From a virus, in the IMG/VR virus record IMGVR_UViG_3300011335_000775, positions 1-64,000 of that record: a DNA stretch of 64,000 bases; one strand, written 5' to 3'. A program made the position numbers and the translations under genes. Below, one piece after another: positions 13,724 to 58,466 of the stretch. Numbering within the stretch: the first letter of the stretch is position 1; each line of letters begins with the position of its first letter. Below the pieces are notes generated by a model. The model was not told the DNA's origin. It was given only the letters and a program-made list of their open reading frames with translations, and did not search any database.

Positions 13724-14478
13724 TTTCGTTCTATGTCTTCTTCAATACAATCTTCACCGTATTGGATTTCAATCAGTTTAAGCAACTGATCAGTTTCGTT
13801 GCATAGCTGGTGCCATTGACCTAACTGAATCCAGGTATGTTGATGACGAGCAGGACTGGCCAGTAAATCATAGTCTGTACTATGCGGATCTACAGTGTAC
13901 ACTGTGGCTTCTCCGTCGGCCACAAACCAAAATTCTGCACGTTGATCATGACGTTGCATGCTGAGCCGTTGCCCGGGCATCACAGTCAACTCTTTAAGTT
14001 TAACATGTGACCCAACTTCGTGCAGCACACGATAGTATCCCCAGGCACGATCTGTTTTGGGTTTCTTCCATTCTTCCAAGATCCAGCTGCTGCTGTTGGC
14101 TTTGTTTTCACCACCCACTCCAAACACAAACTCCACGTCATCAAATACCATTTCGGGTATGTTTTCTTTTGTTCGATCTCCGCCATTGGCAAACACTATT
14201 TCTGCCTCAGGATATTGAAGTTTCACAAGCCGAATTGCATCGCAACTGGAATTGTCATCATCGTTATAAACAACAACTTCGTCTACCACTTCAATAGAGC
14301 TGACTAACGCAAATCTTTCTGACATTGGCATGAATGGCCGACCTTTTTTGCGTGTGAGCCATTGGTCAGAGTTTAACCCTACTACAAGTTTGTTGCCAAG
14401 CTGTTTGGCTGATTTAAAATAAGCCAAGTGTCCTGAGTGTAGCGGATCAAATCCGCCGGTTACAATTACAATTTTCAT
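13720..14478 (-). CDS. HxGH cytidylyltransferase fused to a mannose-6-phosphate isomerase-type cupin
   Basis: TGGFDPLHSGH, VGLNSD.WL.RKKG, FANGGDR; C-terminal WGYY..L...KELTV.PGQRLSMQRH..RAEFW. Confidence 0.85.
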   Translation of the reverse strand: MKIVIVTGGFDPLHSGHLAYFKSAKQLGNKLVVGLNSDQWLTRKKGRPFMPMSERFALVSSIEVVDEVVVYNDDDNSSCDAIRLVKLQYPEAEIVFANGGDRTKENIPEMVFDDVEFVFGVGGENKANSSSWILEEWKKPKTDRAWGYYRVLHEVGSHVKLKELTVMPGQRLSMQRHDQRAEFWFVADGEATVYTVDPHSTDYDLLASPARHQHTWIQLGQWHQLCNETDQLLKLIEIQYGEDCIEEDIERK

Positions 14479-20280: not shown

Positions 20281-20306
20281 ACAGGCACTTTGGTGCCTGT
20301 TTTTTT
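20281..20306 (+). terminator. Rho-independent terminator
   Basis: ACAGGCAC-TTTG-GTGCCTGT followed by T run; overlaps the -35 TTGACT at 20305. Confidence 0.8.
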
Positions 20307-20340
20307 GACTTTTTCTTTTGTATATGTTACTATATACGTT

Positions 20341-21465
20341 ATGCCTTTTTGTTATGCTCCTTGGACTAATTTAGACATCAGTCCGCAAGGTGACATCATG
20401 CCGTGCTGCAAGTATGTTCCTGATGTCAATGATAAACCATTTAATCTGCAAACTCATTCACTTAGTGAATATAGCGGCAGCGCCTTTCTGCAACAAATTA
20501 AACAAGAGTTTGTGAAAGATCAATGGCCGACGGGATGTGTGCGTTGTCAAATTGACGAACAAAACAATATAAAAAGCAAAAGACAATTGGATCATGATCG
20601 ATGGCAGGAACATTTTGCACAGTATCAACTTCACAGTGACCAATGGATTACTGCTAGCATTGCATTTGGGAATACTTGTAATTTAAAATGTATCACCTGC
20701 AATAGCTATAGCAGTAGTCGCTGGCATGACGAATATCTAACGGTATACAATCAGGATATTCAACATGTAAAATTCTATCGACATGATTTTATAGAAACAT
20801 TCTTATCACAAGCCCCGGGTATTATACATTTAGATATACCCGGAGGCGAACCATTTTTAAGTGGAATTAAGGAACAGAAAAAACTGCTAGGGCACTATGT
20901 ACAAACTAAGCAAGCAGCCAATATTTCTTTACACTACACAACCAATACAACAATATTCCCCGACGAAGAATGGTGGAAATTGTGGAGTTATTTTCGTGAA
21001 GTTGATATACAACTCAGCATAGATGGCATAGGAGCAAGATACGAATACATACGCTATCCGGCTGTGTGGAATGTTACTGAAAGTAATGTTCGTAGATATA
21101 TACAACAAGAAAAAGAAATACACAATCTTCGACTCAGTGTAAGCCATACAGTTAGTGCTTACAATATCTTTTATCTTGACGAGTTTTTTAATTGGTGTCA
21201 AAATACAGGGTTACCCAATCCTTGGTTAGGCAGAGTATATTATCCAGATCATATGAAACCCGAAGTATGGGCAGACTCTGCTAGAAATCTAATACAGCAG
21301 CAGCTATTGATCAGCAAACATGATGATGTTAGAACTTGGGCAGGGTTAATGGTGAATGGTGGCAATCAATTCGACGAATTCTGTAAAAGATTGCATCAAC
21401 ATGATCAATATCGTAATTTAAATTTTGTTAACACATTTCCGGAACTAGCACAATACATCAAATGA
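20341..21465 (+). CDS. Radical SAM protein with N-terminal SPASM/twitch-like domain
   Basis: FCYAPW...PCC...C..C; CNLKCITC (CxxxCxxC); GGEPF; TTN; SIDG; start behind TTGACT-17-TACTAT. Confidence 0.85.
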   Translation: MPFCYAPWTNLDISPQGDIMPCCKYVPDVNDKPFNLQTHSLSEYSGSAFLQQIKQEFVKDQWPTGCVRCQIDEQNNIKSKRQLDHDRWQEHFAQYQLHSDQWITASIAFGNTCNLKCITCNSYSSSRWHDEYLTVYNQDIQHVKFYRHDFIETFLSQAPGIIHLDIPGGEPFLSGIKEQKKLLGHYVQTKQAANISLHYTTNTTIFPDEEWWKLWSYFREVDIQLSIDGIGARYEYIRYPAVWNVTESNVRRYIQQEKEIHNLRLSVSHTVSAYNIFYLDEFFNWCQNTGLPNPWLGRVYYPDHMKPEVWADSARNLIQQQLLISKHDDVRTWAGLMVNGGNQFDEFCKRLHQHDQYRNLNFVNTFPELAQYIK

Positions 21466-23463: not shown

Positions 23464-24276
23464 ATGTCAGCATTGTCTTTTAAAGAAAAACTTAAAAATT
23501 TTCCGTCAGTTAATTATACCAGCCTGCGCGAAAGCACGGATCGTCGATTGTATATGCAATATCAATTTGATTACTATGGCATAACCAATCACAATGTGTA
23601 TCTAACTGAAAGATTTAATAAAATTTCAGACTACGTACAAGTATCCGGCACCGGACTTGGCATGCCCGAAGTACATAATCAAATGGGAACTATAATTTCT
23701 CATCTTAATCTAATGAGAAATTGGTATGTATCAACCGACGAAGAATATGCTATTTTTTGTGAAGATGATACCAGTTTTGAAAGCATAAAGCATTGGAATT
23801 TCACATGGGACGAGTTTGTACAACATCTTCCTGAAGGATGGAATGGAGTACAACTAACCAAGGTTCAGATGCCTTATTGTAACCCAGCCGGCGAATCAAA
23901 CTTGGCACTCAAACTCACACGTGGACGCTGGTGGGGAGCATATTCGTTGTTTCGCCGCTCTTATGTTAAACTTCTATTGGACAACGTGTGTCGTGGTTAT
24001 AACAGCTACCAGTTGGATTCTATCAATATTGAAGGAGTTCAGTACGGCCCTATTGTGGAAAATTTACTGTATTTGCAATCAGGCAGGATATTTAATTTTC
24101 CAATGTTGGTCGAAAATGACAATCTCAGCACTACTTTTGAAAACAAAGTTGTAATTACAGAAGGTGCCAAAGTTGCAAATGACGCACAGTATTGGTCGCA
24201 TCGGGTGGTTGCTGAACAATGGCGGCTGAATGGAGCAACTTTAGATCTTAAAGATGCTATGACATTACCCAACTGA
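23464..24276 (+). CDS. GT25-like glycosyltransferase
   Basis: SL..S.DRR, G...SHL, AIFCEDD, LP.GW..VQL. Confidence 0.65.
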   Translation: MSALSFKEKLKNFPSVNYTSLRESTDRRLYMQYQFDYYGITNHNVYLTERFNKISDYVQVSGTGLGMPEVHNQMGTIISHLNLMRNWYVSTDEEYAIFCEDDTSFESIKHWNFTWDEFVQHLPEGWNGVQLTKVQMPYCNPAGESNLALKLTRGRWWGAYSLFRRSYVKLLLDNVCRGYNSYQLDSINIEGVQYGPIVENLLYLQSGRIFNFPMLVENDNLSTTFENKVVITEGAKVANDAQYWSHRVVAEQWRLNGATLDLKDAMTLPN

Positions 24277-27330: not shown

Positions 27331-27677
27331 TCAAAGGATTGCAAGGTGATTCGTATATAGCTGTAAGTGGTGGTGACACTGCTGTGCCGTATGTGACACA
27401 AAATACAAATAATCCCGTGCAAGGTATGATACGAATCAACGGCAATGTCATGGAAGCATTTGACGGGACAAGATGGATAACCATGAATACCAGCTATGCA
27501 ACAGTGATGCTCAAACCCGAATATGCCGTTGTGCTAGACTGGGCAGCAAAGAAGATGCAAGAAGAAAAAGAAATACAAGCATTAGCCGAACGACATCCAG
27601 CAATTGCTGATCTAGTGGATGCAGTGGAAAAAGCACAAGAACAACTGCGAATGACAGCGGCATTGGTAAAAATATGA
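27327..27677 (+). CDS. Hypothetical protein
   Basis: 116 aa, GMIR.NG..MEAFDG.RW, C-terminal coiled coil. Confidence 0.6.
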   Translation: MIKGLQGDSYIAVSGGDTAVPYVTQNTNNPVQGMIRINGNVMEAFDGTRWITMNTSYATVMLKPEYAVVLDWAAKKMQEEKEIQALAERHPAIADLVDAVEKAQEQLRMTAALVKI

Positions 27678-28228
27678 GTGCCGACATTGACATTGACATG
27701 CCAAACCGAGATGCTGTGCTGGCACTGATTCAGCACACTGCCGCACGGCAACACAACGGACGGAAGCACAACTCCGGTATCTATGTGACCGACATCCCCC
27801 GTGATCCTGTGCTAGGATGCGCAGCCATAGATTATGAAACAGCAGAAGCAAGAGGCTATTTCAAGATCGACTTGTTAAACATGAGTGTTTACAGTTTAGT
27901 AAAAGATCCTGCACATTATGAACAACTGCTTGCAGCCACACCACCTTGGGATCAACTGTGGAAGGATCCCGAATGGGCTAAAAAATTAGTACACATCGGC
28001 AACTATACTGATTTGTTGAAAACCATGCAGCCGGATAGTATTCCCAGAATGGCAGCATTTATCAGTGTTATACGTCCAGGAAAAGCACACTTGCAGAATC
28101 AATCTTGGCCAGATGTGTTTAAGTCAGTGTGGGATGGTGATCTCAGCAGAGGATACACATTTAAGAAAGCTCATGCTGTGGGATATGCAGCCCTGGTGGC
28201 ATTGCACATGAATCTAATAGATCTATGA
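27674..28228 (+). CDS. Miniature DNA polymerase III alpha (DnaE)-like protein
   Basis: ADIDID, KHNSGIY, GYFKIDLLN, PDSI..MA..ISVIRPG, GYTFKKAHAVGYA, colinear with DnaE palm/finger motifs. Confidence 0.75.
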   Translation: MSADIDIDMPNRDAVLALIQHTAARQHNGRKHNSGIYVTDIPRDPVLGCAAIDYETAEARGYFKIDLLNMSVYSLVKDPAHYEQLLAATPPWDQLWKDPEWAKKLVHIGNYTDLLKTMQPDSIPRMAAFISVIRPGKAHLQNQSWPDVFKSVWDGDLSRGYTFKKAHAVGYAALVALHMNLIDL

Positions 28229-33536: not shown

Positions 33537-33567
33537 AACCAATAAATAAGTCAAAGGCCTTCTCCAC

Positions 33568-33813
33568 ATGCAAAAGCGTACTCGTAGTATTTTAGACGAA
33601 CTGGACTCAATGTATATCGAGCGTGAACGTGATCTAGTGATAGAAAGCCGCGCCGTAAACATCATTGCCGGCGCGATTAACTTGCTGGAACAGATTGACG
33701 CTTCTTACACTCCAGCCCAAGCAGACAATTTAACACGCAAATTACTCAATGCTATCCGTACTCGTGATACAGGAAAATTTGCCAGAACAGTGAGGCGCAG
33801 CAATGCAAATTAA
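33568..33813 (+). CDS. Hypothetical late protein
   Basis: TAAATA at 33543; 81-aa helical protein. Confidence 0.65.
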   Translation: MQKRTRSILDELDSMYIERERDLVIESRAVNIIAGAINLLEQIDASYTPAQADNLTRKLLNAIRTRDTGKFARTVRRSNAN

Positions 33814-35779
33814 AAAGCTACTTGAAGGTGGCAACGTATTTAAAAACAAATCTGGGGAATCTCTTACCCAACGCATTGATCAACGTGATATACCTGCCAC
33901 AGTTGACTGGTTAGAACAAGTAACAGGCTTGGATTTTACTTCTGATGTAGGTGATGATGGCATCCCTTTGCGTTGGTTGGGATCAACTGGTAAGAAACCC
34001 ACGTCGGGTGATCTAGACCTTGCTGTGGATCTTAGCGAAATAAGCAAAGAACAATTGGCCGGGATCCTTACACAATTTGTGCAAAGTCAAGCACTAGACC
34101 CTAGAGAATGGGTCAAAAAGTCCGGTGAGGTCCATTTCAGAACTCCTATTGCCGGTGATGCTAATCGTGGATTTGTACAAACTGACTTTATGTTCTTTCC
34201 TAATTTAGATTGGGGGCAGTTTTATTATGGTGGCGGCACAGAATCAGCTTTCAAGGGCATGAATCGCAATGTGCTCATGTCAAGCATAGCCAAACAACAA
34301 GGACTCAAAGTAGGGGCCAATGGCATGTTTTCACGAGCCACAAATCAGCTGGTCAACGGCGGCATGGATCCTGACTATGTAGCCACAGTGTTGCTTGGTC
34401 AAGGCGCCACACGTGAGAATTTAAAAAATGTAGAATCTATATATTCTGCATTGGCGCAAGATCCTGATCGCGACACCAAACTCAAAGATTTTCGTGAATA
34501 TCTAGCTGGTGAAGGTCTGCAAGAACCTGATATGACCATGAAGGAAAGTGACACTAACTTTTTAGCTCGCCTGCGTGATAGAATTGTAAATCAAGGTATG
34601 ATGCCGTTGATTGAAACTAAAAAAACATATGAGCTGTATGAACAAGAACCTGCGGCTGTGGGTGGCAAAGCCAAGGGCATCGAGCACCTGGAAGATTATA
34701 TTTTCCGTAGTGGCAGTGCCGGAGTAGACAAAGCATTGGCCATAGCCGATGCTTTTTATGCCAATTCCAAAACAGGCTCAGTAAAATGGGATGGAGTTCC
34801 TGCATTGGTATTTGGGCGTAAACCCGACACTGGTGAGTTTGTGCTCACAGATGACGCAGGATTCACTGCCGCAGGATATGATGGGTTGTTTACCAGCCCT
34901 GATGCTATCGCCGACGATATGGCTCGTCGAGATGCCAATGCCACTGCTAAAGGCAACAAAGCTACTAGAGTCCAGACTTTATTGCCTACTTACGAAACTG
35001 TATGGCCGTATCTTGAAGCAGCCACACCTACCAACTTCCGTGGGTATGTCAAAGGTGATCTGTTGTATACCGCAACACCCACAGTGGAAGCAGGCAATCT
35101 GGTATTCCAACCCAACACTGTGCAGTATCGTATTCCTGCCAATAGCAAACTTGGACAACAAATTGCTAACAGTGATGTGGGGGTGGCAGTACATACCATG
35201 TATGCAGACGTAGATGCTCCCAAACAACCACTCAGCAGAGTTAAATTTAATCCTGTGGAAGGATTGCTGCTGATAGAACCCATCTATGCCAAACCTGTGC
35301 CCAAGAATGATGCAATAGTCAAGCAGATTAAATTGTTGTTGCGTCAAAATCGAGCAGCACTGGATACTTTGTTTAATCCTGCAGAATTGCGGGCCATGAA
35401 GATAACCGATTTGGCCAAGTTAGCAATTGATTACATCAACAAGCGTGTGGATCCTAATCATGCTGCATATACTGGAAATTTTAGTGATCTAGTTCCAGGA
35501 TTCATGTCTTGGCTACAACAAACACAAACATCACAAAAAGTCAACAATATAGCACAATATCTGCGCAGTCCTACTAGCAACGAGCAAGCACTGGCTGCTG
35601 CGTTCTTGTTGTTTGAATTGTTGCACGATTTGAAGTTAGATTTGCTAGGGCAGTTGGATACACAAGGGCCCGGCAATGAAGGATGGGTGTTTGCCACCCC
35701 TGCAGGCTATGGCAAAGCAGTGAATAGATTTGATTTCACTGCCAGAAACAAAGCACGAAACAACCCGCCAACTCGATGA
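33803..35779 (+). CDS. Two-domain protein: Pol-beta-type nucleotidyltransferase plus ATP-dependent ligase-like domain
   Basis: LGSTGKKPTSGDLDLAV and FVQTDFM (GS-DxD-D); HLED, VKWDG (KxDG), KGDLLY, EGWV, KAVNR. Confidence 0.55.
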   Translation: MQIKKLLEGGNVFKNKSGESLTQRIDQRDIPATVDWLEQVTGLDFTSDVGDDGIPLRWLGSTGKKPTSGDLDLAVDLSEISKEQLAGILTQFVQSQALDPREWVKKSGEVHFRTPIAGDANRGFVQTDFMFFPNLDWGQFYYGGGTESAFKGMNRNVLMSSIAKQQGLKVGANGMFSRATNQLVNGGMDPDYVATVLLGQGATRENLKNVESIYSALAQDPDRDTKLKDFREYLAGEGLQEPDMTMKESDTNFLARLRDRIVNQGMMPLIETKKTYELYEQEPAAVGGKAKGIEHLEDYIFRSGSAGVDKALAIADAFYANSKTGSVKWDGVPALVFGRKPDTGEFVLTDDAGFTAAGYDGLFTSPDAIADDMARRDANATAKGNKATRVQTLLPTYETVWPYLEAATPTNFRGYVKGDLLYTATPTVEAGNLVFQPNTVQYRIPANSKLGQQIANSDVGVAVHTMYADVDAPKQPLSRVKFNPVEGLLLIEPIYAKPVPKNDAIVKQIKLLLRQNRAALDTLFNPAELRAMKITDLAKLAIDYINKRVDPNHAAYTGNFSDLVPGFMSWLQQTQTSQKVNNIAQYLRSPTSNEQALAAAFLLFELLHDLKLDLLGQLDTQGPGNEGWVFATPAGYGKAVNRFDFTARNKARNNPPTR

Positions 35780-35839
35780 TTTTTTGCCAGATTCATAAAT
35801 AAGTGTAGGGCAGAAACCCACTTTTTAGGAGATATTAAA

Positions 35840-36265
35840 ATGGCAGGATTTACAAAAACAAACGGAACTACCCAACCGGTATTCCACATGGACACTGCGA
35901 ACGGTAACGTTCAAGGTACATCAAACATCGCCGCAGGCGGTTCAGTTAACTTCCAAGGTCCCAAGCTAGACTTTTTCAGCTTGGTAGCTAATGGTTCTTT
36001 GACCACATCTGGTAACGTGAATGGTTACATCAACAACTTGATGCAAGCTATTCAGACCAAAGCCACCGTGGCCATGTATCAAGTTAGCCCAGCAGCACCA
36101 ACGATATTGAACTTGGCACTGTATCCAACAGGTGCTTACGATGCTGCGTCATTGCTGGCCACTGCTAATACCAGTGCTACAGTGGCTTCGGGTGGTCAGA
36201 ACATACAGTTAAGCAGCTCGGCTGGTAACGCTGTGTTTACAACTAGCCCTAACGTCAACGTCTAA
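35840..36265 (+). CDS. Abundant small virion protein (putative decoration/structural)
   Basis: Late promoter 35796, strong AGGAG RBS, A/T/N/G-rich, own terminator. Confidence 0.6.
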   Translation: MAGFTKTNGTTQPVFHMDTANGNVQGTSNIAAGGSVNFQGPKLDFFSLVANGSLTTSGNVNGYINNLMQAIQTKATVAMYQVSPAAPTILNLALYPTGAYDAASLLATANTSATVASGGQNIQLSSSAGNAVFTTSPNVNV

Positions 36266-36283
36266 TCTACCAGGTAGAAAATC

Positions 36284-36316
36284 AAAGCCTTGGATTAATT
36301 TCCAAGGCTTTTTTTT
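36284..36316 (+). terminator. Rho-independent terminator
   Basis: AAAGCCTTGGA-TTAATT-TCCAAGGCTTT followed by T run. Confidence 0.8.
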
Positions 36317-36331
36317 GGCCGTAAATACCGT

Positions 36332-36742
36332 ATGACAATGAGTATACAAATAACCACAGACTTTGATTGCAGACCTACTGGAGTCACTGGACACTATCGA
36401 GAAAATCTACTGCCGTTTACTGACCAGCTGGGGCAATCAGTTACTGATATGTCTACCTGGGTCCGCAGTCGCAATCAACAACGCAATTGGGAAACTATCA
36501 TGCAATTGATAAGTCTTTACACACAACCAGTTCGTGTTTCTCAAGTGCGTGCCAAGGATCAACGTTGGCAATTTGAGTTTGACACAGATTTTGATGATGT
36601 GTTTGCTATCAACGATGACCCTGTGGGGAGACTACTGCAAGCATGTGATGGTGTGCCGGTAATCAATTATGTTGAACAACAATTAACTACATTATTACAT
36701 CCCGGAGTGAACATATGGTTCAACGCATTGAACCATAAATAA
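36332..36742 (+). CDS. Hypothetical protein
   Basis: TAAATA-4 nt-ATG; RNQQRNWET..Q.ISL. Confidence 0.65.
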   Translation: MTMSIQITTDFDCRPTGVTGHYRENLLPFTDQLGQSVTDMSTWVRSRNQQRNWETIMQLISLYTQPVRVSQVRAKDQRWQFEFDTDFDDVFAINDDPVGRLLQACDGVPVINYVEQQLTTLLHPGVNIWFNALNHK

Positions 36743-36745
36743 CTC

Positions 36746-37015
36746 ATGATAGACACTTATACCACCGATGTTGAAAAAAAGAGCCTTGAGGCACATGTAG
36801 AGCTTTGTGCCGAACGCTATCGACATTTAGAATTCCAACTGGAAGCAGCCAACTCCAGCATAGGTAGTTTAAAATCCATGGTAGTAGAAGTGCATGAAAT
36901 GGTGCATGCAATGGCAGCTAAACGCAATGACCAATTGATAAACTGGGGCATAGGACTAATTGGATTCCTTGTGGCCACAGTGGGCTGGATGGTAACTCGC
37001 TACGTATTAATATGA
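36746..37015 (+). CDS. Small coiled-coil protein with C-terminal transmembrane helix (holin-like)
   Basis: LEAHVELCAERY coiled coil; WGIGLIGFLVATVGWMV hydrophobic segment. Confidence 0.55.
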   Translation: MIDTYTTDVEKKSLEAHVELCAERYRHLEFQLEAANSSIGSLKSMVVEVHEMVHAMAAKRNDQLINWGIGLIGFLVATVGWMVTRYVLI

Positions 37016-37503
37016 AAGCCAGTCAGAAACTGGCTGAATTGGCCGCACAAGAATTACCAAAACTCTTGGATAAAGTAATCATAGAGGATGGAAAAAAGTA
37101 CCGTGTGTTTGGCAAATATACCATACATCCTGCAACCGACGGATTTGAAGTTTTTCAAAGAGATGACAATATTGGTACATTTTCCAATACCAAATCTGCA
37201 TTGGCTTGGTGCATAGCCGACAATCAAAATCGTCTTAATCTAGCTAGACAAATACATGAACTTGATCAATCCGTAGTAAGAATGCGTAATGACATATACA
37301 TACGCCGCGGTATTGCTGATCGTGCGTCGGGTCAAAACTGGGAAAATTTAATTAACAAAACAAATGCTAGGCAAGAGCAGAACTTGATCCTAGAAAAAGA
37401 ACTAGCGAAATGTATAAATTTGGCTAAATACTGGCAACTACGAGGAAACTCAGATGAAACTAAACGAACTGGCCGTAACACGCCCCACCCGACAAATCGC
37501 TAA
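37012..37503 (+). CDS. Hypothetical protein
   Basis: 163 aa, overlap-coupled. Confidence 0.6.
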   Translation: MKASQKLAELAAQELPKLLDKVIIEDGKKYRVFGKYTIHPATDGFEVFQRDDNIGTFSNTKSALAWCIADNQNRLNLARQIHELDQSVVRMRNDIYIRRGIADRASGQNWENLINKTNARQEQNLILEKELAKCINLAKYWQLRGNSDETKRTGRNTPHPTNR

Positions 37504-38341
37504 AGTATTCGAAAGTCATTTTGACCAACGTGTACAATTTGATTCGCTGAATCGCAAACAACTGCACAACATGTATCGCCAAGTGCGCGGCATGCTGGGC
37601 GAAGTACGCAGCGGCCCTGCTCGCCACACTAGCCAAAAGAATCCTGCATATCTCAAGCTGATGATGATGGAACAAGCACTTGCTGAAAAGATCTATGAAG
37701 ATGAAACGGCTCAACAGAATCCTCAAACTGGAACATCGGGCAGTCCGGGAATAAATCCTCAACAAACCGCTGCCATGATGGCTCAACAAAAACAAGCCAA
37801 GATTAAACAAATGGAAACTGAACTTCAGACCAAGAAAGATGAAGTTACAGATCTACAGAACCAACTCAACAAAGAAAAGACTACGGTCACCGCTATGGAA
37901 TGGCGTCAACGTGCTCAAGCCGGTGGTTATTATCTTAGCGAAGGTGAAGTACAACAAGCTCAAGTGGTGTTGGCTGCACAAGACATGGTTGACAAAATGC
38001 AAGACATGATTGAAGACAGCACCGAAATGCAATTCAAAGAATTGCCAGCCCTGGTTGATTCAATCAAGAATCAAATTGGTCCAGACCAAGCAGCACAATT
38101 CAACAATGATGCACAAGCAGCACTCAGTGGCCTGGTACAGAACTTGCAAGCCAGCAAACAACAGCTAGAGCAAGCTCTTGGTGTAGTTACTGGACAAGCA
38201 CCTACACCTGGTGCTGACATGGGTATGACTCCCCCGGGCGGAGATCAGGGACTAGCAGGGCCTCCTCCGGGTGCTGAACTTCCTCCGGAAGAACCAGCAA
38301 TTGGTGGACCGGCAGCAGCTCTAGGCCGTGAGCGTAGATAA
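37454..38341 (+). CDS. Probable prohead core/scaffold-like protein
   Basis: MKLNEL start, coiled coils, LSEGEVQQAQVVLAA, Pro/Gly tail ending LGRERR. Confidence 0.5.
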   Translation: MKLNELAVTRPTRQIAKVFESHFDQRVQFDSLNRKQLHNMYRQVRGMLGEVRSGPARHTSQKNPAYLKLMMMEQALAEKIYEDETAQQNPQTGTSGSPGINPQQTAAMMAQQKQAKIKQMETELQTKKDEVTDLQNQLNKEKTTVTAMEWRQRAQAGGYYLSEGEVQQAQVVLAAQDMVDKMQDMIEDSTEMQFKELPALVDSIKNQIGPDQAAQFNNDAQAALSGLVQNLQASKQQLEQALGVVTGQAPTPGADMGMTPPGGDQGLAGPPPGAELPPEEPAIGGPAAALGRERR

Positions 38342-38688
38342 TGAGAATCAATGAAGTAGAAGCAGACGCTACCGCAGACAAACTCATGGCCTTGGCCAAG
38401 TTTGCTGTGGGTAGAGCACAGGATACTTCTGCCAAAATGCAAATGCCAGTACAGGCATTTATCAATCGAGCACAAAGTATGGGTATAGACATTACTCCAG
38501 ACACTTTGCAAACTCTAGTTGGGCAACCACCACTTAGTGGCTTGATTGAACCTATGAATCCCAACGCCACAAAATTAACATTCAAAGGTGGCGACAAGCC
38601 CGGACCAGTCACAATGCCAGTTAATCAAGCCCAGGACATTGTGGCAGCAGCAGCACAATCCGCTTTGAACAAAGATCGCGGAGTTTAA
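38341..38688 (+). CDS. Hypothetical protein (probably head-associated)
   Basis: MRINEV start, coupled to previous gene. Confidence 0.55.
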   Translation: MRINEVEADATADKLMALAKFAVGRAQDTSAKMQMPVQAFINRAQSMGIDITPDTLQTLVGQPPLSGLIEPMNPNATKLTFKGGDKPGPVTMPVNQAQDIVAAAAQSALNKDRGV

Positions 38689-39792: not shown

Positions 39793-40179
39793 ATGGCATA
39801 TTCAACTCAAGTAATCGATCATTATGAAAATCCCCGCAATGTGGGGTCGTTTGCCAAGGACGACACAGACATTGGAACAGGTATGGTGGGAGCACCTGCC
39901 TGCGGAGATGTGATGAAATTACAAATCAAAGTACAAGATGGAATCATCACCGACGCAAGATTTAAAACTTATGGATGCGGCAGTGCTATTGCTTCAAGTA
40001 GTTTGGTAACTGAATGGGTAAAGGGTAAAACCCTAGATCAAGCAGCAGCTCTTAAGAATTCTGAAATTGCCGAACATCTGGCATTGCCTCCTGTGAAGAT
40101 ACATTGTAGCATATTAGCCGAGGATGCCATAAAGGCAGCGGTAATTGATTACAAAAACAAACATGATCTTGTTAACTGA
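39793..40179 (+). CDS. iscU: Fe-S cluster scaffold IscU
   Basis: DHYENPRNVG, GAPACGDVM, FKTYGCGSAIASSS, LPPVKIHCS. Confidence 0.97.
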   Translation: MAYSTQVIDHYENPRNVGSFAKDDTDIGTGMVGAPACGDVMKLQIKVQDGIITDARFKTYGCGSAIASSSLVTEWVKGKTLDQAAALKNSEIAEHLALPPVKIHCSILAEDAIKAAVIDYKNKHDLVN

Positions 40180-40483
40180 AACTGCTGCTCGAAAAATAAC
40201 ACAGACCATTCAACGTCGCGGGCATGGCATTGGTATTCGTGTAGGAGTCAAAACAACCGGTTGCTCTGGGCTTGCTTATGTGTTAGAATACGTAGATGCT
40301 GAACAACCGGAAGATATCTGTATCGATTGCAACAACTGTAAATTGTTTGTTGATCCCAAAAGCCGTGCATATCTACAAGGACTCGAAGTAGACTACACCA
40401 GACAAGGGCTTAACGAAGGATTCCAGTTCAACAATCCTAATGAACGTGACCGATGTGGGTGCGGAGAAAGTTTTAGAGTTTAA
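40163..40483 (+). CDS. iscA: Fe-S cluster assembly protein IscA
   Basis: GVKTTGCSGLAY, F.NPN...CGCGESF. Confidence 0.95.
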   Translation: MILLTETAARKITQTIQRRGHGIGIRVGVKTTGCSGLAYVLEYVDAEQPEDICIDCNNCKLFVDPKSRAYLQGLEVDYTRQGLNEGFQFNNPNERDRCGCGESFRV

Positions 40484-43330: not shown

Positions 43331-45652
43331 ATGACACAAATCACAGTTATTAAACGTAACGGAAGAAAAGAACAATTAAGCCTAGAAAAGTGGCAAACCC
43401 AAATTGCCAAAGTATGTTCAGGCATAGCAGATGTAAGTCAAAGCATGGTGGAGATCAAAGCCCAGATGCACTTTTATGATGGCATCACTACCAAAGAGAT
43501 CGACGGCGTTACACTCCGAGCCATAGTAGATCTAATTGACATTGAACACAATCCAGATGTTGGACATACCAACTATCAATATGTGGCAGGCAAGCAACGT
43601 CTTAGCATGTTGCGCAAAGACGTATATGGATCTTATGAAGTTCCCCACCTGTATGAGATTGTGAAGAAAAACGTATCCACAGGCTTGTACACCCCGGAAC
43701 TGTTGGAATGGTACGACGAAGCTGACTGGAATCGCATGCAGGACATGATAGATCATTCCAAGGACGAGCAATACGGTTATGCTGCAATTGAACAATTGAT
43801 TGAAAAATATCTAGTAAAGAATCGTGCCACAAAGGAAACTTATGAAACTCCCCAAGTTCGTTACATGGTTGCAGCAGCCACAGTTTTTCATTCGGAAGAA
43901 CCCAACACGGCTCGTATGCGATACATCAAAGAATACTACAATGCTGCTAGTGATGGTCTTTTTACTCTTGCTACTCCTGTGTTGGCTGGTCTGGGCACTC
44001 CTACTAAACAATTTAGCAGTTGCGTTCTTATTCGGAGTGATGACGACCTTGATAGTATCTTTGCAAGTGGTGAAATGATGGCCAAGTATGCCAGCAAACG
44101 TGCTGGCATTGGACTGGAGATTGGACGACTGCGACCATTGGGTAGTCCCATTCGAGGTGGAGAAATCATGCACACTGGCATGATACCATTTTTGAAGAAA
44201 TGGTTTGGCGACTTGCGTAGTTGTTCACAAGGGGGAATCCGTAATGCTAGTGCTACTGTATTTTATCCTATTTGGCATCATCAGTTTGATGACCTTATTG
44301 TTCTTAAGAACAACCAAGGAACAGAAGAAACCCGTGTTAGACACATGGACTATGGTGTGGTTCTATCCGCATTTTTCTGGCGCAGATTCAAGAACAAAGA
44401 GAACATAACATTCTTTGACCCCAACGAAGTCCCAGACTTGTATGAAGCTTTCTACAAGAATACAGAACTATTTGAAGAACTGTATGTGAAGTATGAAAAA
44501 CAAAAAGGTCTACGCAAAAAGACCATGAGTGCAGAAGAAGTATTCAAGTCGGGCATACTAAAAGAACGCACAGATACAGGACGTATCTATCTAGTGTTCA
44601 TTGACAACGTGATGAAACAAGGACCATTTGATCCCGAATATCATACCATTTACCAGAGTAACTTATGCTGTGAAATTTTATTACCTACTCGCTCTTTTAA
44701 ACGCCTGGATGATAGTAATGGGCGTATCGCTTTATGCACGTTGGGATCGCTCAACTGGGGAGCCTTCCGTAATCCAGAAGATATCAGGCGTGCTGCCCGT
44801 ATTTTGCATCGCAGTCTTAACAATATTCTTGATTATCAGGACTTTTTATCTATACAGTCTAAACTAAGCAATGATGAAATTAGACCACTGGGTATCGGCA
44901 TCACTAACCTGGCATACTGGCATGCAAAAAGAGGTCTCAAATACGGTGAAAAAGATTCCCTAGCTGAAGTCAAAACTTGGATGGAACACATGGCATTCTA
45001 TCTCACCGAAGCCAGTGTTGAGCTAGCACAAGAGCGTGGCGCTTGTTTGGGCAGTGAACACACACGGTATGGCAACGGTGTATTTCCGTGGGAACTCCGT
45101 GCAACAGGTGTGAACGAACTTACAGACTTTGTGCCTGAGTTGGATTGGGAAACCCTGCGTACTAATATGAAAGCACATGGAGTTCGAAATGCCACACAAA
45201 TGGCAGTTGCTCCTGTTGAATCAAGCAGTGTTGTTATTAACAGCACCAACGGTATTGAAATGCCCATGAGTTTGATCAGTGTGAAAGAAAGCAAAGCAGG
45301 ATCATTTGTACAGGTTGTTCCTGAATATCATAAACTTAAAAATAAATATCAACTGATGTGGGAACAGAAAGATTGTGAGAGTTATCTCAAAACCGCTGCG
45401 GTCATTGCAGCGTATGTTGATCAATCCATCAGCACCAATACTTTTTACAATCCTGCACACTGGGAAGATCGTAAAGTTCCTACCACATTGATAGCAAAGA
45501 ACTTAATGCAATCACATGCGTGGGGGTTGAAGACCTTTTACTACAGTCTTATTAACAAACAAGGTAGTAAAGCAACAGCAGAAGATGCTCCCACAATGTT
45601 GGAACCAATCAACTTTGATAATGAAGAAGATTGTGAATCGTGTAAACTTTAA
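43331..45652 (+). CDS. nrdA: Ribonucleotide reductase class Ia alpha subunit
   Basis: ATP cone VIKRNG, QFSSCVL, SQGGIR, QSNLCCEI, APVESSS, DQSISTN, KTFYY, C-terminal CESC. Confidence 0.97.
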   Translation: MTQITVIKRNGRKEQLSLEKWQTQIAKVCSGIADVSQSMVEIKAQMHFYDGITTKEIDGVTLRAIVDLIDIEHNPDVGHTNYQYVAGKQRLSMLRKDVYGSYEVPHLYEIVKKNVSTGLYTPELLEWYDEADWNRMQDMIDHSKDEQYGYAAIEQLIEKYLVKNRATKETYETPQVRYMVAAATVFHSEEPNTARMRYIKEYYNAASDGLFTLATPVLAGLGTPTKQFSSCVLIRSDDDLDSIFASGEMMAKYASKRAGIGLEIGRLRPLGSPIRGGEIMHTGMIPFLKKWFGDLRSCSQGGIRNASATVFYPIWHHQFDDLIVLKNNQGTEETRVRHMDYGVVLSAFFWRRFKNKENITFFDPNEVPDLYEAFYKNTELFEELYVKYEKQKGLRKKTMSAEEVFKSGILKERTDTGRIYLVFIDNVMKQGPFDPEYHTIYQSNLCCEILLPTRSFKRLDDSNGRIALCTLGSLNWGAFRNPEDIRRAARILHRSLNNILDYQDFLSIQSKLSNDEIRPLGIGITNLAYWHAKRGLKYGEKDSLAEVKTWMEHMAFYLTEASVELAQERGACLGSEHTRYGNGVFPWELRATGVNELTDFVPELDWETLRTNMKAHGVRNATQMAVAPVESSSVVINSTNGIEMPMSLISVKESKAGSFVQVVPEYHKLKNKYQLMWEQKDCESYLKTAAVIAAYVDQSISTNTFYNPAHWEDRKVPTTLIAKNLMQSHAWGLKTFYYSLINKQGSKATAEDAPTMLEPINFDNEEDCESCKL

Positions 45653-45665
45653 AGGAAAAAAACAC

Positions 45666-46577
45666 ATGAAAAAATTATTAGTTATATTAAGCGTATTGGT
45701 ATTGGCGGCGTGTAATAAAGCACCTGCTCCTACTGCAACATCAAACACATTTACTCCTACTTTTGTAGTAGACTACAACAAGTGTGGAACTGATCCGGTC
45801 ATCTCTGGAAACTCGGTAACATTTGGTGAAGGAACAAACTGTGCAGCAGGTAGACTTGTATCCGAACAAGGATATGTAAACATCACACAGATCAAAGCAA
45901 CAGTTGATTTGTCAAAACTTGCACAGAACTATGTTAATGCCAGTTTGTATATGATATCAAATCCAGTTCAGCCTGGTGTTCAACCCAAGGGCACCAACTA
46001 CTGTGATGCAGGTGGAAATAATAATCAATGGAATTGCCAAGAGATTGATATCATAGAAACAAATGGTAACAAGATTACACAATCTACTGTGCATCTAGGT
46101 ACAGGTGGGTCCAGTGCTCCACAACGGTTTGAGTATTCATTTGCAGAAACTGCCAACAACAGTTGCTTTAACTATTCGTCAATGACCAGCTCAACCACTG
46201 CGACCAATGGGTTACATAACATGGTTGGTGTCATCGATATGACCAAGCCATTTGATATGGTAACTGATTTTACATACGGAACAACTCCTACCATGACAGT
46301 GACATATTCACAGGATGGCAAGAGCGTGGTAGTATATAATAGTTTGATTGGTTCAGGTGCAGAAGGTAGTGGTACTGTGGATATGACTTTGTTGACAACT
46401 AGCATGAAGAATGGTTACTGGTTGAATCTAGCATTTTGGCAAGGTTACAGCCCAACAGGTCCTGGTTCAGCACCATGGTGGAACAACAGTTGTTCATGGG
46501 GTGCATTATGCAACAGCACAGGATCATACTGGAGCATAAGCAACATTCAAGTAACTGCGGATAGTGTAATAAAATGA
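45666..46577 (+). CDS. Lipoprotein with GH7-like (clan GH-B) glycoside hydrolase domain
   Basis: Lipobox MKKLLVILSVLVLAA-C; VDLSKL, NASLY, GTNYCDA, CQEIDIIETN (ExDxxE), STVH, IDMTKPF.MVTDF, GYWLNLAFW, SISNIQV. Confidence 0.7.
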   Translation: MKKLLVILSVLVLAACNKAPAPTATSNTFTPTFVVDYNKCGTDPVISGNSVTFGEGTNCAAGRLVSEQGYVNITQIKATVDLSKLAQNYVNASLYMISNPVQPGVQPKGTNYCDAGGNNNQWNCQEIDIIETNGNKITQSTVHLGTGGSSAPQRFEYSFAETANNSCFNYSSMTSSTTATNGLHNMVGVIDMTKPFDMVTDFTYGTTPTMTVTYSQDGKSVVVYNSLIGSGAEGSGTVDMTLLTTSMKNGYWLNLAFWQGYSPTGPGSAPWWNNSCSWGALCNSTGSYWSISNIQVTADSVIK

Positions 46578-57077: not shown

Positions 57078-58466
57078 ATGTTATATGACCCACTTGCCCC
57101 TTACTCTGTGGATGATGTCCGTTTCACTGGAACTATGTCGTCAGGTTGGATAACTGACCTCAACAGTTCCGACAGTCGCATTCACAAAGAGAAAGTGATT
57201 GAAAAAGCCCTAATGGCTGCAAAATTGGGCAGTGCCGATGCACAGTCTTTTTTGTTCAATTGCTATCAAGCATACAATCCTTTCTATACCTTCCATGTAA
57301 AACAAGTTCCTGAAACGCAAGGTCTTACGGGGCGTGATAATCCTTGGCCATTGTTTTGGGGCTTGCTAGAAAGTCTACGTACTCGAACCAATACTGGACA
57401 TGCAGCTCGTGACTTCATGATTCGTGTGAGTGAAGAATTTGACTCGGAAGAATGGAACACAATCTGTGCTCCTGTGATCCGCAAAGACCTACGCTGTGGT
57501 ATCAGTGAAAAGACACTGAACAAGGTGCTGGGCAAAACACAATATCGCATTCCGGTGTTCTCATGCCAGTTGGCACAAGATTCAACAGATCGTCCAGCCA
57601 AGATGAAAGGTGTCAAACGTCTAGAAGTCAAGCTGGATGGTGTGCGTGTGATTGCTGTGGTCACTGCCAATGGTTGTACCCTGTACAGCCGCAACGGTAA
57701 GCAGTTTGCAAACTTTCCACAGATTGCTGATGCTGTGATGGATGTGCGTCCCATCTTGATAAAGAATAGTACACTCAACGCTAGCTTTATACTTGATGGT
57801 GAGATTGTGGGAGAAAGTTTTCAAAGGCTCATGCGTCAAGCACATCGTAAGAGCAATGTCGAAACGTCCGACACGGTGTATCACATCTTTGACGCCATGC
57901 CCTTGGCTGAATTTATGGAAGGACATTGTAATGCCATGCAAGCTCGGCGCCTTGAATGGTTGGAAGGCAGTCGAGATCGACTGATGAGAACTGACTGTTT
58001 GCGTATTATGTCAGGTGTTAATGTGGATCTAGACACAGCAGAAGGGCATGACGTGATGAATCGTTATGCACAGGATGCAGTAAAGGACGGATTCGAAGGA
58101 ATCATGATCAAAGATCTGTCTGCACCTTACGAGTGCAAGCGATCCAGCTTTTGGATGAAATGGAAACCCACAATCACTGTGGATCTCAATATCGTGGGAT
58201 TCGAACAAGGAACTGGTCGCAATGAGGGCCGGTTGGGTGCTATAGTATGTGAAGGAGTTGATAATGACAGAAACATCAGAGTTAATGTTGGTAGCGGTTT
58301 GTCTGACAGCGATCGTGATGAGTATTGGGCTTCCCGGGATCAGTTACTTGGTCATGTGGTTGAAGTCGAAGCGGACGCAGTCACCCAAAATCAAGACGGA
58401 ACATACAGTCTCCGATTCCCAAGATTCCTAAGATTTCGCAGTTTTGAACCAGGAGATAAACTATGA
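57078..58466 (+). CDS. lig: ATP-dependent DNA ligase
   Basis: EVKLDGVR, SRNGK, LDGEI, IFD, FEGIMIKD, W.K.K, SLRFPRF. Confidence 0.95.
   Translation: MLYDPLAPYSVDDVRFTGTMSSGWITDLNSSDSRIHKEKVIEKALMAAKLGSADAQSFLFNCYQAYNPFYTFHVKQVPETQGLTGRDNPWPLFWGLLESLRTRTNTGHAARDFMIRVSEEFDSEEWNTICAPVIRKDLRCGISEKTLNKVLGKTQYRIPVFSCQLAQDSTDRPAKMKGVKRLEVKLDGVRVIAVVTANGCTLYSRNGKQFANFPQIADAVMDVRPILIKNSTLNASFILDGEIVGESFQRLMRQAHRKSNVETSDTVYHIFDAMPLAEFMEGHCNAMQARRLEWLEGSRDRLMRTDCLRIMSGVNVDLDTAEGHDVMNRYAQDAVKDGFEGIMIKDLSAPYECKRSSFWMKWKPTITVDLNIVGFEQGTGRNEGRLGAIVCEGVDNDRNIRVNVGSGLSDSDRDEYWASRDQLLGHVVEVEADAVTQNQDGTYSLRFPRFLRFRSFEPGDKL

Follow-up and report, generated by a model that had tools for sequence, protein, structure and literature searches.

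The window analysed here, 64,000 nucleotides long, is the first 64 kb of the 113,802-bp IMG/VR virus record IMGVR_UViG_3300011335_000775, whose CheckV completeness of 33% implies a genome of roughly 340 kb. Near-identical DNA is present in river and lake metagenomes, and the record encodes a gp32-like single-stranded DNA-binding protein, UvsX, primase, a DnaB-type helicase, an exonuclease, class I ribonucleotide reductase (RNR) and an ATP-dependent DNA ligase; these amount to a T4-like replication set, and the source is a jumbo phage from fresh water that has not been cultured. Our subject is one gene of this phage (P0001), whose immediately upstream neighbours are the primase and DnaB-type helicase genes and whose 658-amino acid (aa) product has close homologues on contigs of up to 343 kb, those on contigs of roughly 340 kb being 83% identical. 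The predicted protein very probably joins a family-X-polymerase-like (PolX-like) N-terminal module to a ligase-fold C-terminal module, as judged from structural models of both halves. Its open reading frame (ORF) has GAGG about 9 nucleotides (nt) 5' of it, and its start overlaps the stop of an 81-aa ORF by 11 nt. The features of the gene are as follows.

33803-35779, + strand: fusion gene, one uninterrupted 658-aa ORF (ORF calling and translation)
33803-33826, + strand: N-terminal leader MQIKKLLE, with L-x-E (residues 6-8) directly before an invariant GGN; candidate capsid-targeting/cleavage peptide
33827-34447, + strand: family-X-polymerase-like module, palm and thumb, residues 9-215 (AlphaFold model and fold searches)
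33980-33997, + strand: GS motif of the N-half
34010-34018 and 34184-34186, + strand: predicted catalytic triad, D70 and D72 (first interval) and D128 (second)
34250-34303, + strand: thumb-like segment FKGMNR...IAKQQG
34448-34672, + strand: helical tail of the N module and linker, residues 216-290, including the conserved helix FLARLRDRIVNQG
within the linker, + strand: L/I-x-E sites LQE (residues 239-241), LIE (269-271, nt 34607-34615) and LYE (278-280)
34673-35776, + strand: predicted ligase-fold covalent nucleotidyltransferase module, residues 291-658, Pfam DUF6267 (E 8e-28)
within the C module, + strand: cap residues H295, E297 and D298, and a PNTVQY element
34784-34795, + strand: motif I, KWDG, with K328
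35054-35068, + strand: GDLLY
35309-35659, + strand: all-helical insertion of 117 residues (503-619), placed after the central sheet and before the motif IV/V hairpin (model secondary structure)
35678-35689, + strand: motif IV-like EGWV
35714-35728, + strand: motif V-like K638/R642

The initial annotation had recognized a Pol-beta nucleotidyltransferase fused to a ligase-like domain from a small set of motifs, all of which are present as listed and conserved in relatives. In the N-half, LGSTGKKPTSGDLDL at residues 59-73 has the form GS-x7-GDLDL, and the third aspartate is D128 in VQTDF; the C-half carries KWDG (residues 328-331), GDLLY (418-422), EGWV (626-629) and, near its end, GKAVNR with K638 and R642. 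When 1.84 billion cluster representatives were scanned in full with HMMER, 1321 clusters proved to be related. Among relatives of 30-60% identity, the N-half residues G60, S68, G69, D70, D72 and D128 (compared over 39 diverged sequences) and the C-half residues K328, D330, G331, D350, D419, E626, G627, K638 and R642 are invariant or nearly so. When representatives clustered at 50% identity are considered, KxDG is kept in 96 of 97 complete C domains, the EG[YWFH][VIL]...Kx[VI]x[RK] hairpin in 92 of the same 97, and G[STN]xG..GDxD in 82 of 90 N domains. Because these motifs are kept across such diverged relatives, they are not chance matches. In the model of the C-half K328 is flanked by strands, and FVLTD350, GD419LLY, E626-G-W-V and K638-x-V-x-R642 sit on strands in an order that fits ligase motifs III, IIIa, IV and V, an equivalence drawn from pattern and strand order only. 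GDLLY, which had been taken for motif III, is more likely IIIa, since a strand FVLTD(D/K) with the invariant D350 occupies the place expected for motif III.

The N-half was modelled as residues 1-275 with AlphaFold (AF2) on an alignment of relatives, with a predicted local distance difference test score (pLDDT) of 92.0. In a Foldseek search of the PDB all 50 matches listed are PolX-family proteins (Thermus PolX, Pol mu, Pol lambda, Pol beta and terminal deoxynucleotidyltransferase, TdT), the best with E 2e-4 and probability 1.0. The top 10 rows of an exhaustive VIA search are likewise all PolX (Z 6.9-9.8, 146-182 aligned residues), including Pol beta (4rpx; Z 9.8, root mean square deviation 3.5, 164 residues aligned) and African swine fever virus (ASFV) Pol X (174 aa, 5hr9; Z 8.8, 158 of 176 residues aligned). 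Terminal uridylyltransferases (TUTases), poly(A) polymerases, CD-NTases, MenT and CCA-adding enzymes, on the other hand, align in the VIA search with Z of 4.4-6.8 over about 85 residues, the palm alone. Since the thumb also aligns with PolX and the other nucleotidyltransferases match the palm only, the N-half is not a generic Pol-beta-fold transferase; as modelled, it is a minimal family-X polymerase-like module with the palm-plus-thumb layout of ASFV Pol X, followed by a helical tail. The confident model and the fold searches agree with the earlier placement of the N-half in the Pol-beta superfamily and make it more specific, a PolX-like type rather than a CCA-adding or CD-NTase one.

The C-half, modelled as residues 280-658, reached a pLDDT of 93.4. 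When it was compared by VIA with 48,161 representative chains, each of the 37 highest-ranking rows was a ligase, a capping enzyme or another protein of ligase fold, with Z 4.7-8.2 over 140-200 aligned residues. The best match is NgrRnl, the nick-sealing RNA ligase of Naegleria gruberi (Z 8.2 over 180 residues; 13 NgrRnl PDB entries give Z 8.0-8.4), followed by the RNA ligases Trl1 (Z 7.3), T4 Rnl2 (7.1), REL1 (7.1-7.3) and T4 Rnl1 (6.8-7.1); DNA ligases give Z 5.2-6.9 and capping enzymes 4.8-5.2. The Foldseek rows for this half are weak, and nearly all are ligases. The oligonucleotide-binding (OB) domain with motif VI is absent from the C-half, and the protein ends 20 residues past K638, which excludes the architecture of a classical DNA ligase and is normal for RNA ligases. 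The 117-residue helical insertion, in which there is a weak DUF7893 match (E 0.011), may bind the substrate. Several further invariant residues of the C domain, H295, E297, D298, D419, H464, N546 and K611, are atypical of ligases. Among annotation resources, PHROGs place the fusion protein in a family of unassigned function, NCBIfam gives no match, and a single-sequence search of the PDB was empty or at chance level; a protein atlas pointed to an RNA_ligase cluster at a score of 0.77, a sub-threshold lead. By its model, then, the C-half is a ligase-fold covalent nucleotidyltransferase of a new sequence family, not assigned to any named ligase family. The models and the AlphaFold, Foldseek and VIA results for each half thus bear out the fusion of a Pol-beta-type nucleotidyltransferase with a ligase-like domain, and, at the level of structure prediction, a ligase fold is found in the C-half.

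The way in which the two modules travel is informative. In relatives in which they are encoded by separate genes the gene boundary falls within the region of residues 216-290, and the FLARLR helix is part of the N-terminal leader of some stand-alone C proteins. Module arrangement was read over 80 uncultured-phage loci retrieved with a C-domain profile. Most of these have the N-C fusion; in about 14 the N gene is immediately followed by the C gene, often with overlapping stop and start, and in two the order is C...N within a 990-aa protein, with further reversed fusions found among the representatives. The PA5oct/RaK2-like group of cultured phages has the modules as split genes. Because the modules are fused, split but adjacent, or reversed across related phages, we take them to act together, and this is strong evidence that both activities belong to one pathway. 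Each is also found alone: T4-like cyanophages and a Vibrio jumbo phage have the C module only, and Atu_ph07 has, in the region examined, the N module only. In T4-like cyanophages, namely P-TIM40 (L001:5174-6247) and S-PM2 (BFVD matches), a "cytitidyltransferase", an HxGH nucleotidyltransferase, either comes next after the DUF6267 gene or is joined to it in a fusion. The genes upstream in P-TIM40 (82 and 259 aa) were considered as a diverged 81-aa protein plus N module and rejected, there being no BLAST or hidden Markov model (HMM) support for this. In some relatives (representative proteins P0134, P0192 and P0203) the ligase-like domain is followed by a different domain that starts [LI]xE-GGWLxPxLTS and contains LGSA[AG]YY; its sequence suggests another Pol-beta-type nucleotidyltransferase that replaces or precedes the PolX-like module.

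The features outside the gene that bear on its role are the following.

33542-33548, + strand: ATAAATA, T4-late-promoter-like, 20 nt 5' of the 81-aa ORF
33568-33813, + strand: 81-aa ORF, conserved partner that overlaps the fusion start
35840-38688, + strand: conserved downstream block of six small genes (141, 136, 89, 163, 295 and 115 aa) accompanying the fusion gene
57078-58466, + strand: canonical ATP-dependent DNA ligase (phrog_114, E 2e-89)
genome positions 70981-72003, beyond the window: UvdE-type UV-damage endonuclease, 340 aa (PF03851, E 2e-26; phrog_8420)

From its position and sequence, the ATAAATA at 33542-33548 probably drives a two-gene unit of the 81-aa ORF and the fusion gene, and the same heptamer also stands closely 5' of the next genes, at 35795 and 36735; genome-wide, however, it is not enriched (15 found against about 22 expected per strand), and it is taken here as a positional hint only. 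The 81-aa family is present in 52 of 82 loci and the families of the downstream block in 26 to 60 of the 82. The 81-aa protein matches phrog_11854, "virion structural protein" (E 2e-12), and its family HMM matches an 83-aa gene in the corresponding region of Atu_ph07 (E 8e-16); LLE near residues 8-10 is kept in 45 of its 52 members. The 295-aa protein matches phrog_14154, also "virion structural protein". When the family HMMs were compared with the Pseudomonas jumbo phage PA5oct, the 141-aa family found EST35_0233 (E 2e-7), the 136-aa family EST35_0234 (E 7e-21), the 163-aa family EST35_0236 ("hypothetical protein", E 1e-3) and the 295-aa family EST35_0237 (E 4e-4), and the 81-aa protein has no BLAST similarity to EST35_0230. 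The counterpart of the N module in PA5oct is EST35_0231, and a divergent ligase-like gene, EST35_0228, is also present there, with hhalign giving 81% across the motif IV/V region and Foldseek 3e-6. The annotation "structural protein, ESI-MS/MS", which denotes detection by mass spectrometry (MS), is carried in PA5oct by genes 0230-0235 and by 0237. Placement of the fusion gene in a late head-gene cluster, as originally described, did not hold: primase and helicase genes lie upstream, and in PHROGs searches across the 114-kb record the capsid, portal and terminase families had no match among the 30 larger ORFs, the matches being generic "virion structural protein" families and weak tail/baseplate-family matches only.

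The other part of the virion argument fared better. The L-x-E sites that had been noticed at the N-terminus and in the linker are there, and they are conserved: [LI]xE stands directly before GGN in 74 of 77 N domains, 38 of them internal to longer proteins, and in 62 of 79 C domains it lies no more than 8 residues from where RIxHxED begins. Three unrelated families of the block have a leader that fits M[KR][LIFYMV]x[ED][LIFVM] in 16 of 95, 27 of 44 and 20 of 26 members; among the other ORFs of these loci only 16 of 668 have it. This leader is common to stand-alone N proteins, stand-alone C proteins and the unrelated 295- and 115-aa neighbours, and the 295- and 115-aa families begin M[KR][LI]xE[LFV]. 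Model confidence is low at the leader (residues 1-10 of the N-half). The C-only homologues of cyanophages and the Vibrio phage have no leader and start directly at "THLEHLED", so the leader is not needed for the fold. The T4 prohead protease cuts after L/I-x-E, and PA5oct encodes a T4-type S77 prohead protease (PF03420, E 7e-25). The internal proteins of T4 are otherwise diverse and share a conserved capsid-targeting sequence only (PMC3012670). Because the block is syntenic with the MS-detected virion proteins of PA5oct, the L/I-x-E sites are conserved and the leader is shared, we regard loading of the fusion protein into the capsid as plausible by analogy, if a little short of probable. Delivery in the virion, as the initial annotation imagined it, thus lost its supposed head-gene surroundings and gained support from the PA5oct synteny, the conserved sites and the common leader.

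As to function, we lean, with some reserve, towards a two-module fill-and-seal enzyme for nucleic-acid repair, a reading based on the modelled domains. At a gap or a recessed end the PolX-like module would extend a 3'-OH by one or a few nucleotides; the ligase-fold module would become adenylylated on K328 and then close the remaining nick. The likeliest target would be the phage's own DNA, for instance at breaks, UV-repair gaps or sites of nuclease damage. The window holds a second ligase-fold gene, that of the canonical DNA ligase, and the fusion enzyme is therefore not the replicative ligase. UvdE enzymes make nicks that need fill-in and sealing, and the UvdE-type endonuclease of this phage may supply such nicks to the PolX-ligase protein; primase, helicase, exonuclease and RNR genes near the fusion gene make up a repair-type context. 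Some family-X and non-homologous end joining (NHEJ) polymerases insert ribonucleotides, and the closest resemblance of the sealing module is to ligases that act on duplexes and join an RNA strand with a 3'-OH. We infer that the polymerase might insert ribonucleotides, which an Rnl-type ligase would seal well, and such a ribo-patch version would be attractive at the start of infection, when deoxyribonucleoside triphosphates would be scarce. On this view the protein would be packed in the capsid, where a T4-type prohead protease would cut it, and it would reach the host together with the DNA.

Several observations weigh against this picture. The 8-kDa deoxyribose phosphate (dRP) lyase and fingers domains of full-length Pol beta are absent, only about 20 residues preceding the palm, and the C module has no OB domain. 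The fusion protein has no Pfam polymerase match (DNA_pol_B_palm appears in one of 70 relatives, E 0.004), a PF14792 profile search of the genome found nothing at E <= 10, and a PDB profile search with the N-half family found nothing. The same is true of a PDB profile search with the C-half family; Pfam finds no ligase family among the 70 relatives, and the C-domain alignment, compared by hhalign with T4 Rnl2 and with the DNA ligase of the phage itself, gave nothing (probability <= 0.15). Fold Z scores of 8-10 are middling, in a range where a match can reflect a common arrangement. It is because the Z scores are moderate and the hhalign result is null that we keep the C-half outside the named ligase families. 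Many C domains, moreover, are fused to or lie beside an HxGH cytidylyltransferase-like domain, and some are joined to HAD or 5'-nucleotidase domains; such partners could point to small-molecule nucleotide chemistry rather than repair. That alternative, in which both nucleotidyltransferase folds act on a small molecule or a protein and a nucleotide cofactor or signal is made or recycled, or a host target is nucleotidylylated after injection, draws on CTP_transf_like fusions or neighbours in 5 of 70 relatives and many BFVD matches, on the "cytitidyltransferase" of S-PM2 and P-TIM40, on an HxGH motif that immediately follows the C domain in 15 or more representatives, on the NT5C and HAD fusions, on the invariant C-domain residues atypical of ligases, and on the occurrence of each module alone in cultured phages. 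We nevertheless judge it improbable: the thumb, which grips the primer-template in PolX enzymes, is retained and conserved, the fold neighbours of the C-half are polynucleotide ligases and not small-molecule adenylyltransferases, and no cytidylyltransferase lies near the fusion gene, the only one in the genome being at 14167-14463. Repair of RNA, with the N module tailing or restoring 3' ends without a template and the C module rejoining, for example, tRNA cut by host anticodon nucleases (and, if packaged, ready at the onset of infection), we consider unlikely, though less so. The best fold matches of the C-half are all RNA ligases, it has no OB domain, as they have none, TdT and Pol mu are among the family-X matches and can add nucleotides even where a template gives little instruction or none, the atlas lead is to RNA_ligase (at a score below the reliable range), and HAD-type phosphatase domains in some relatives could heal 3' ends. 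But in Z the RNA ligases lead the DNA ligases by only 1-2 units, the N-half matches DNA gap-fillers over palm and thumb and CCA-adding enzymes and TUTases over the palm only, neither the window nor the set of conserved neighbours showed a polynucleotide kinase/phosphatase, and the genomic surroundings are DNA replication and repair genes. The tRNA-repair role against anticodon nucleases that had first been proposed gained support from nothing tested, with no Pnkp-type end-healing partner seen in the window and a polymerase half like those of templated gap-fillers. Because the polymerase half resembles template-dependent DNA gap-fillers, repair of nicks in DNA or DNA-RNA is indicated first.

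Where such a repair enzyme would work is a separate matter that overlaps with the repair readings. It could be an unpackaged, cytoplasmic accessory of repair or replication, the L/I-x-E-GG and L-x-E-G-A-R-I elements being structural and the MS matches in PA5oct carry-over; we find this possible and rather doubtful. The fusion gene directly follows the primase and helicase genes, and the ligase-like PA5oct gene EST35_0228 is annotated "hypothetical protein" and not as an MS-detected structural protein. The PA5oct study lists seven "virion-unrelated enzymes" among its 93 virion-linked products (PMC7318152). An "E-GG" start also opens the different nucleotidyltransferase-like domain described above, so part of the L-x-E-GG motif could, on sequence grounds, be structural. 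Searches of the contigs brought up neither head genes nor a prohead protease: PF03420 (Peptidase_S77, gp21-type) is not found in a 262-kb relative that is 75% complete (the 33%-complete record itself was not searched for it), and the gp23 capsid gene is found neither in that relative nor in the 33%-complete record, negatives that say little in records so incomplete. The available contigs seem to lack the head module. Against an unpackaged enzyme, the low-confidence leader is seemingly not packed into the fold, leaderless homologues exist, the same leader is found on non-homologous neighbours and is rare elsewhere, and a series of syntenic neighbours in PA5oct were likewise found in virions.

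Parts of the proposed fill-and-seal enzyme have counterparts in known systems. ASFV Pol X, like the N module, is a minimal family-X polymerase of palm and thumb only, at work in a viral repair setting in which a separate sealing activity, the ASFV DNA ligase, completes the job; the two are only about 14% identical and have no profile link, and the phage polymerase is fused to its sealer and has in addition a helical tail (residues 216-263) and the leader. The best fold matches of the C-half, NgrRnl (Rnl5 type; 5cot, 6vt*), T4 Rnl2 and Trypanosoma brucei REL1, share with it the motif order KxDG...EGxx...Kx, and in both NgrRnl and the phage protein the nucleotidyltransferase domain is C-terminal. 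There is, however, no detectable sequence similarity to these ligases, the helical insertion before motif IV is particular to the phage protein, its spacing from motif I to the putative motif III is much shorter, and its partner is a PolX and not an OB-like domain. By its model the C module is nonetheless closest in fold and architecture to the OB-less nick-sealing RNA ligases of the Rnl5/Rnl2 type. Bacterial LigD offers an analogy only: one polypeptide combines an end-extending polymerase and a ligase (plus a phosphoesterase) for break repair by NHEJ. Its polymerase prefers ribonucleoside triphosphates and its ligase prefers a 3'-ribonucleotide, and LigD may serve as a model of how a PolX and an RNA-ligase-like sealer could cooperate, although LigD pairs a polymerase of the archaeo-eukaryotic primase type with a classical, OB-containing ATP-dependent DNA ligase. 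The T4 internal proteins and Alt, which are capsid-targeted, gp21-processed and injected, are similar in having a short N-terminal leader that ends in L/I-x-E and is all that these unrelated proteins share; in the phage fusion protein packaging and cleavage are putative, and we know of no repair enzyme of this kind among the T4 internal proteins.

The nearest published analogue as a PolX-ligase fusion is PgVPolX of Phaeocystis globosa virus, in which PolX is fused to an NAD+-dependent DNA ligase and which fills and seals base excision repair intermediates, completing base excision repair in vitro (PMC5537341). Its polymerase part is a complete Pol-beta core with dRP lyase activity, and its ligase is of the LigA type and uses NAD+, whereas the phage protein has a minimal PolX and an OB-less, Rnl-like DUF6267 domain; the former comes from a giant virus, the latter from a bacteriophage, where it is possibly capsid-loaded. 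A literature search for family-X polymerase-ligase fusions in phages found this giant-virus protein as the sole characterised fusion, and a search for DUF6267 or "cytitidyltransferase" found no paper. To our knowledge no phage family-X polymerase has been described. There is a sizeable chance that the ligase-fold family is new, and likewise that its delivery in a capsid is new. The full proposal, that DUF6267 is a new and widespread polynucleotide ligase family which in jumbo phages is fused to PolX in a capsid-loaded, cleavable polyprotein that mends virion-DNA damage or host-nuclease damage at entry, is put forward only tentatively. If it were true, this would be the first injected pair of DNA-repair enzymes described for any phage. 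DUF6267 has thousands of members in aquatic phages, T4-like cyanophages among them, and the ligase/capping-enzyme fold gives it a testable function; if confirmed, the family would be a new branch of the covalent nucleotidyltransferases. Capsid delivery would add genome repair to the injected inhibitors, RNA polymerases and ADP-ribosyltransferases, and would bear on how jumbo phages survive UV in surface water and nuclease-based defences. A compact fill-and-seal enzyme could also serve as a reagent.

Some other genes of the record deserve mention. A 184-aa protein (27674-28228, + strand) matches phrog_11778, "DNA polymerase", end to end (E 6e-50), although polymerases are as a rule far longer. 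At 39793-40483 (+ strand) a gene for a NifU-like Fe-S scaffold protein (PF01592, E 9e-52) and a 112-aa ORF behind it form an unusual auxiliary pair in the replication region, and a 330-aa ORF with no PHROG match lies between the genes for the large and small RNR subunits (45585-46577, + strand). There are two radical-SAM proteins (phrog_14086), one in the window at 20290-21465 (+ strand) and one at L084:2125-3474 (- strand). A glucosyltransferase is encoded at 23464-24276, the cytidylyltransferase-like match at 14167-14463 is on the - strand, and genes for UDP-glucose dehydrogenase and PstS lie in the second half of the genome. Finally, a blastn search with the fusion gene against 50,697 phage records gave no match.

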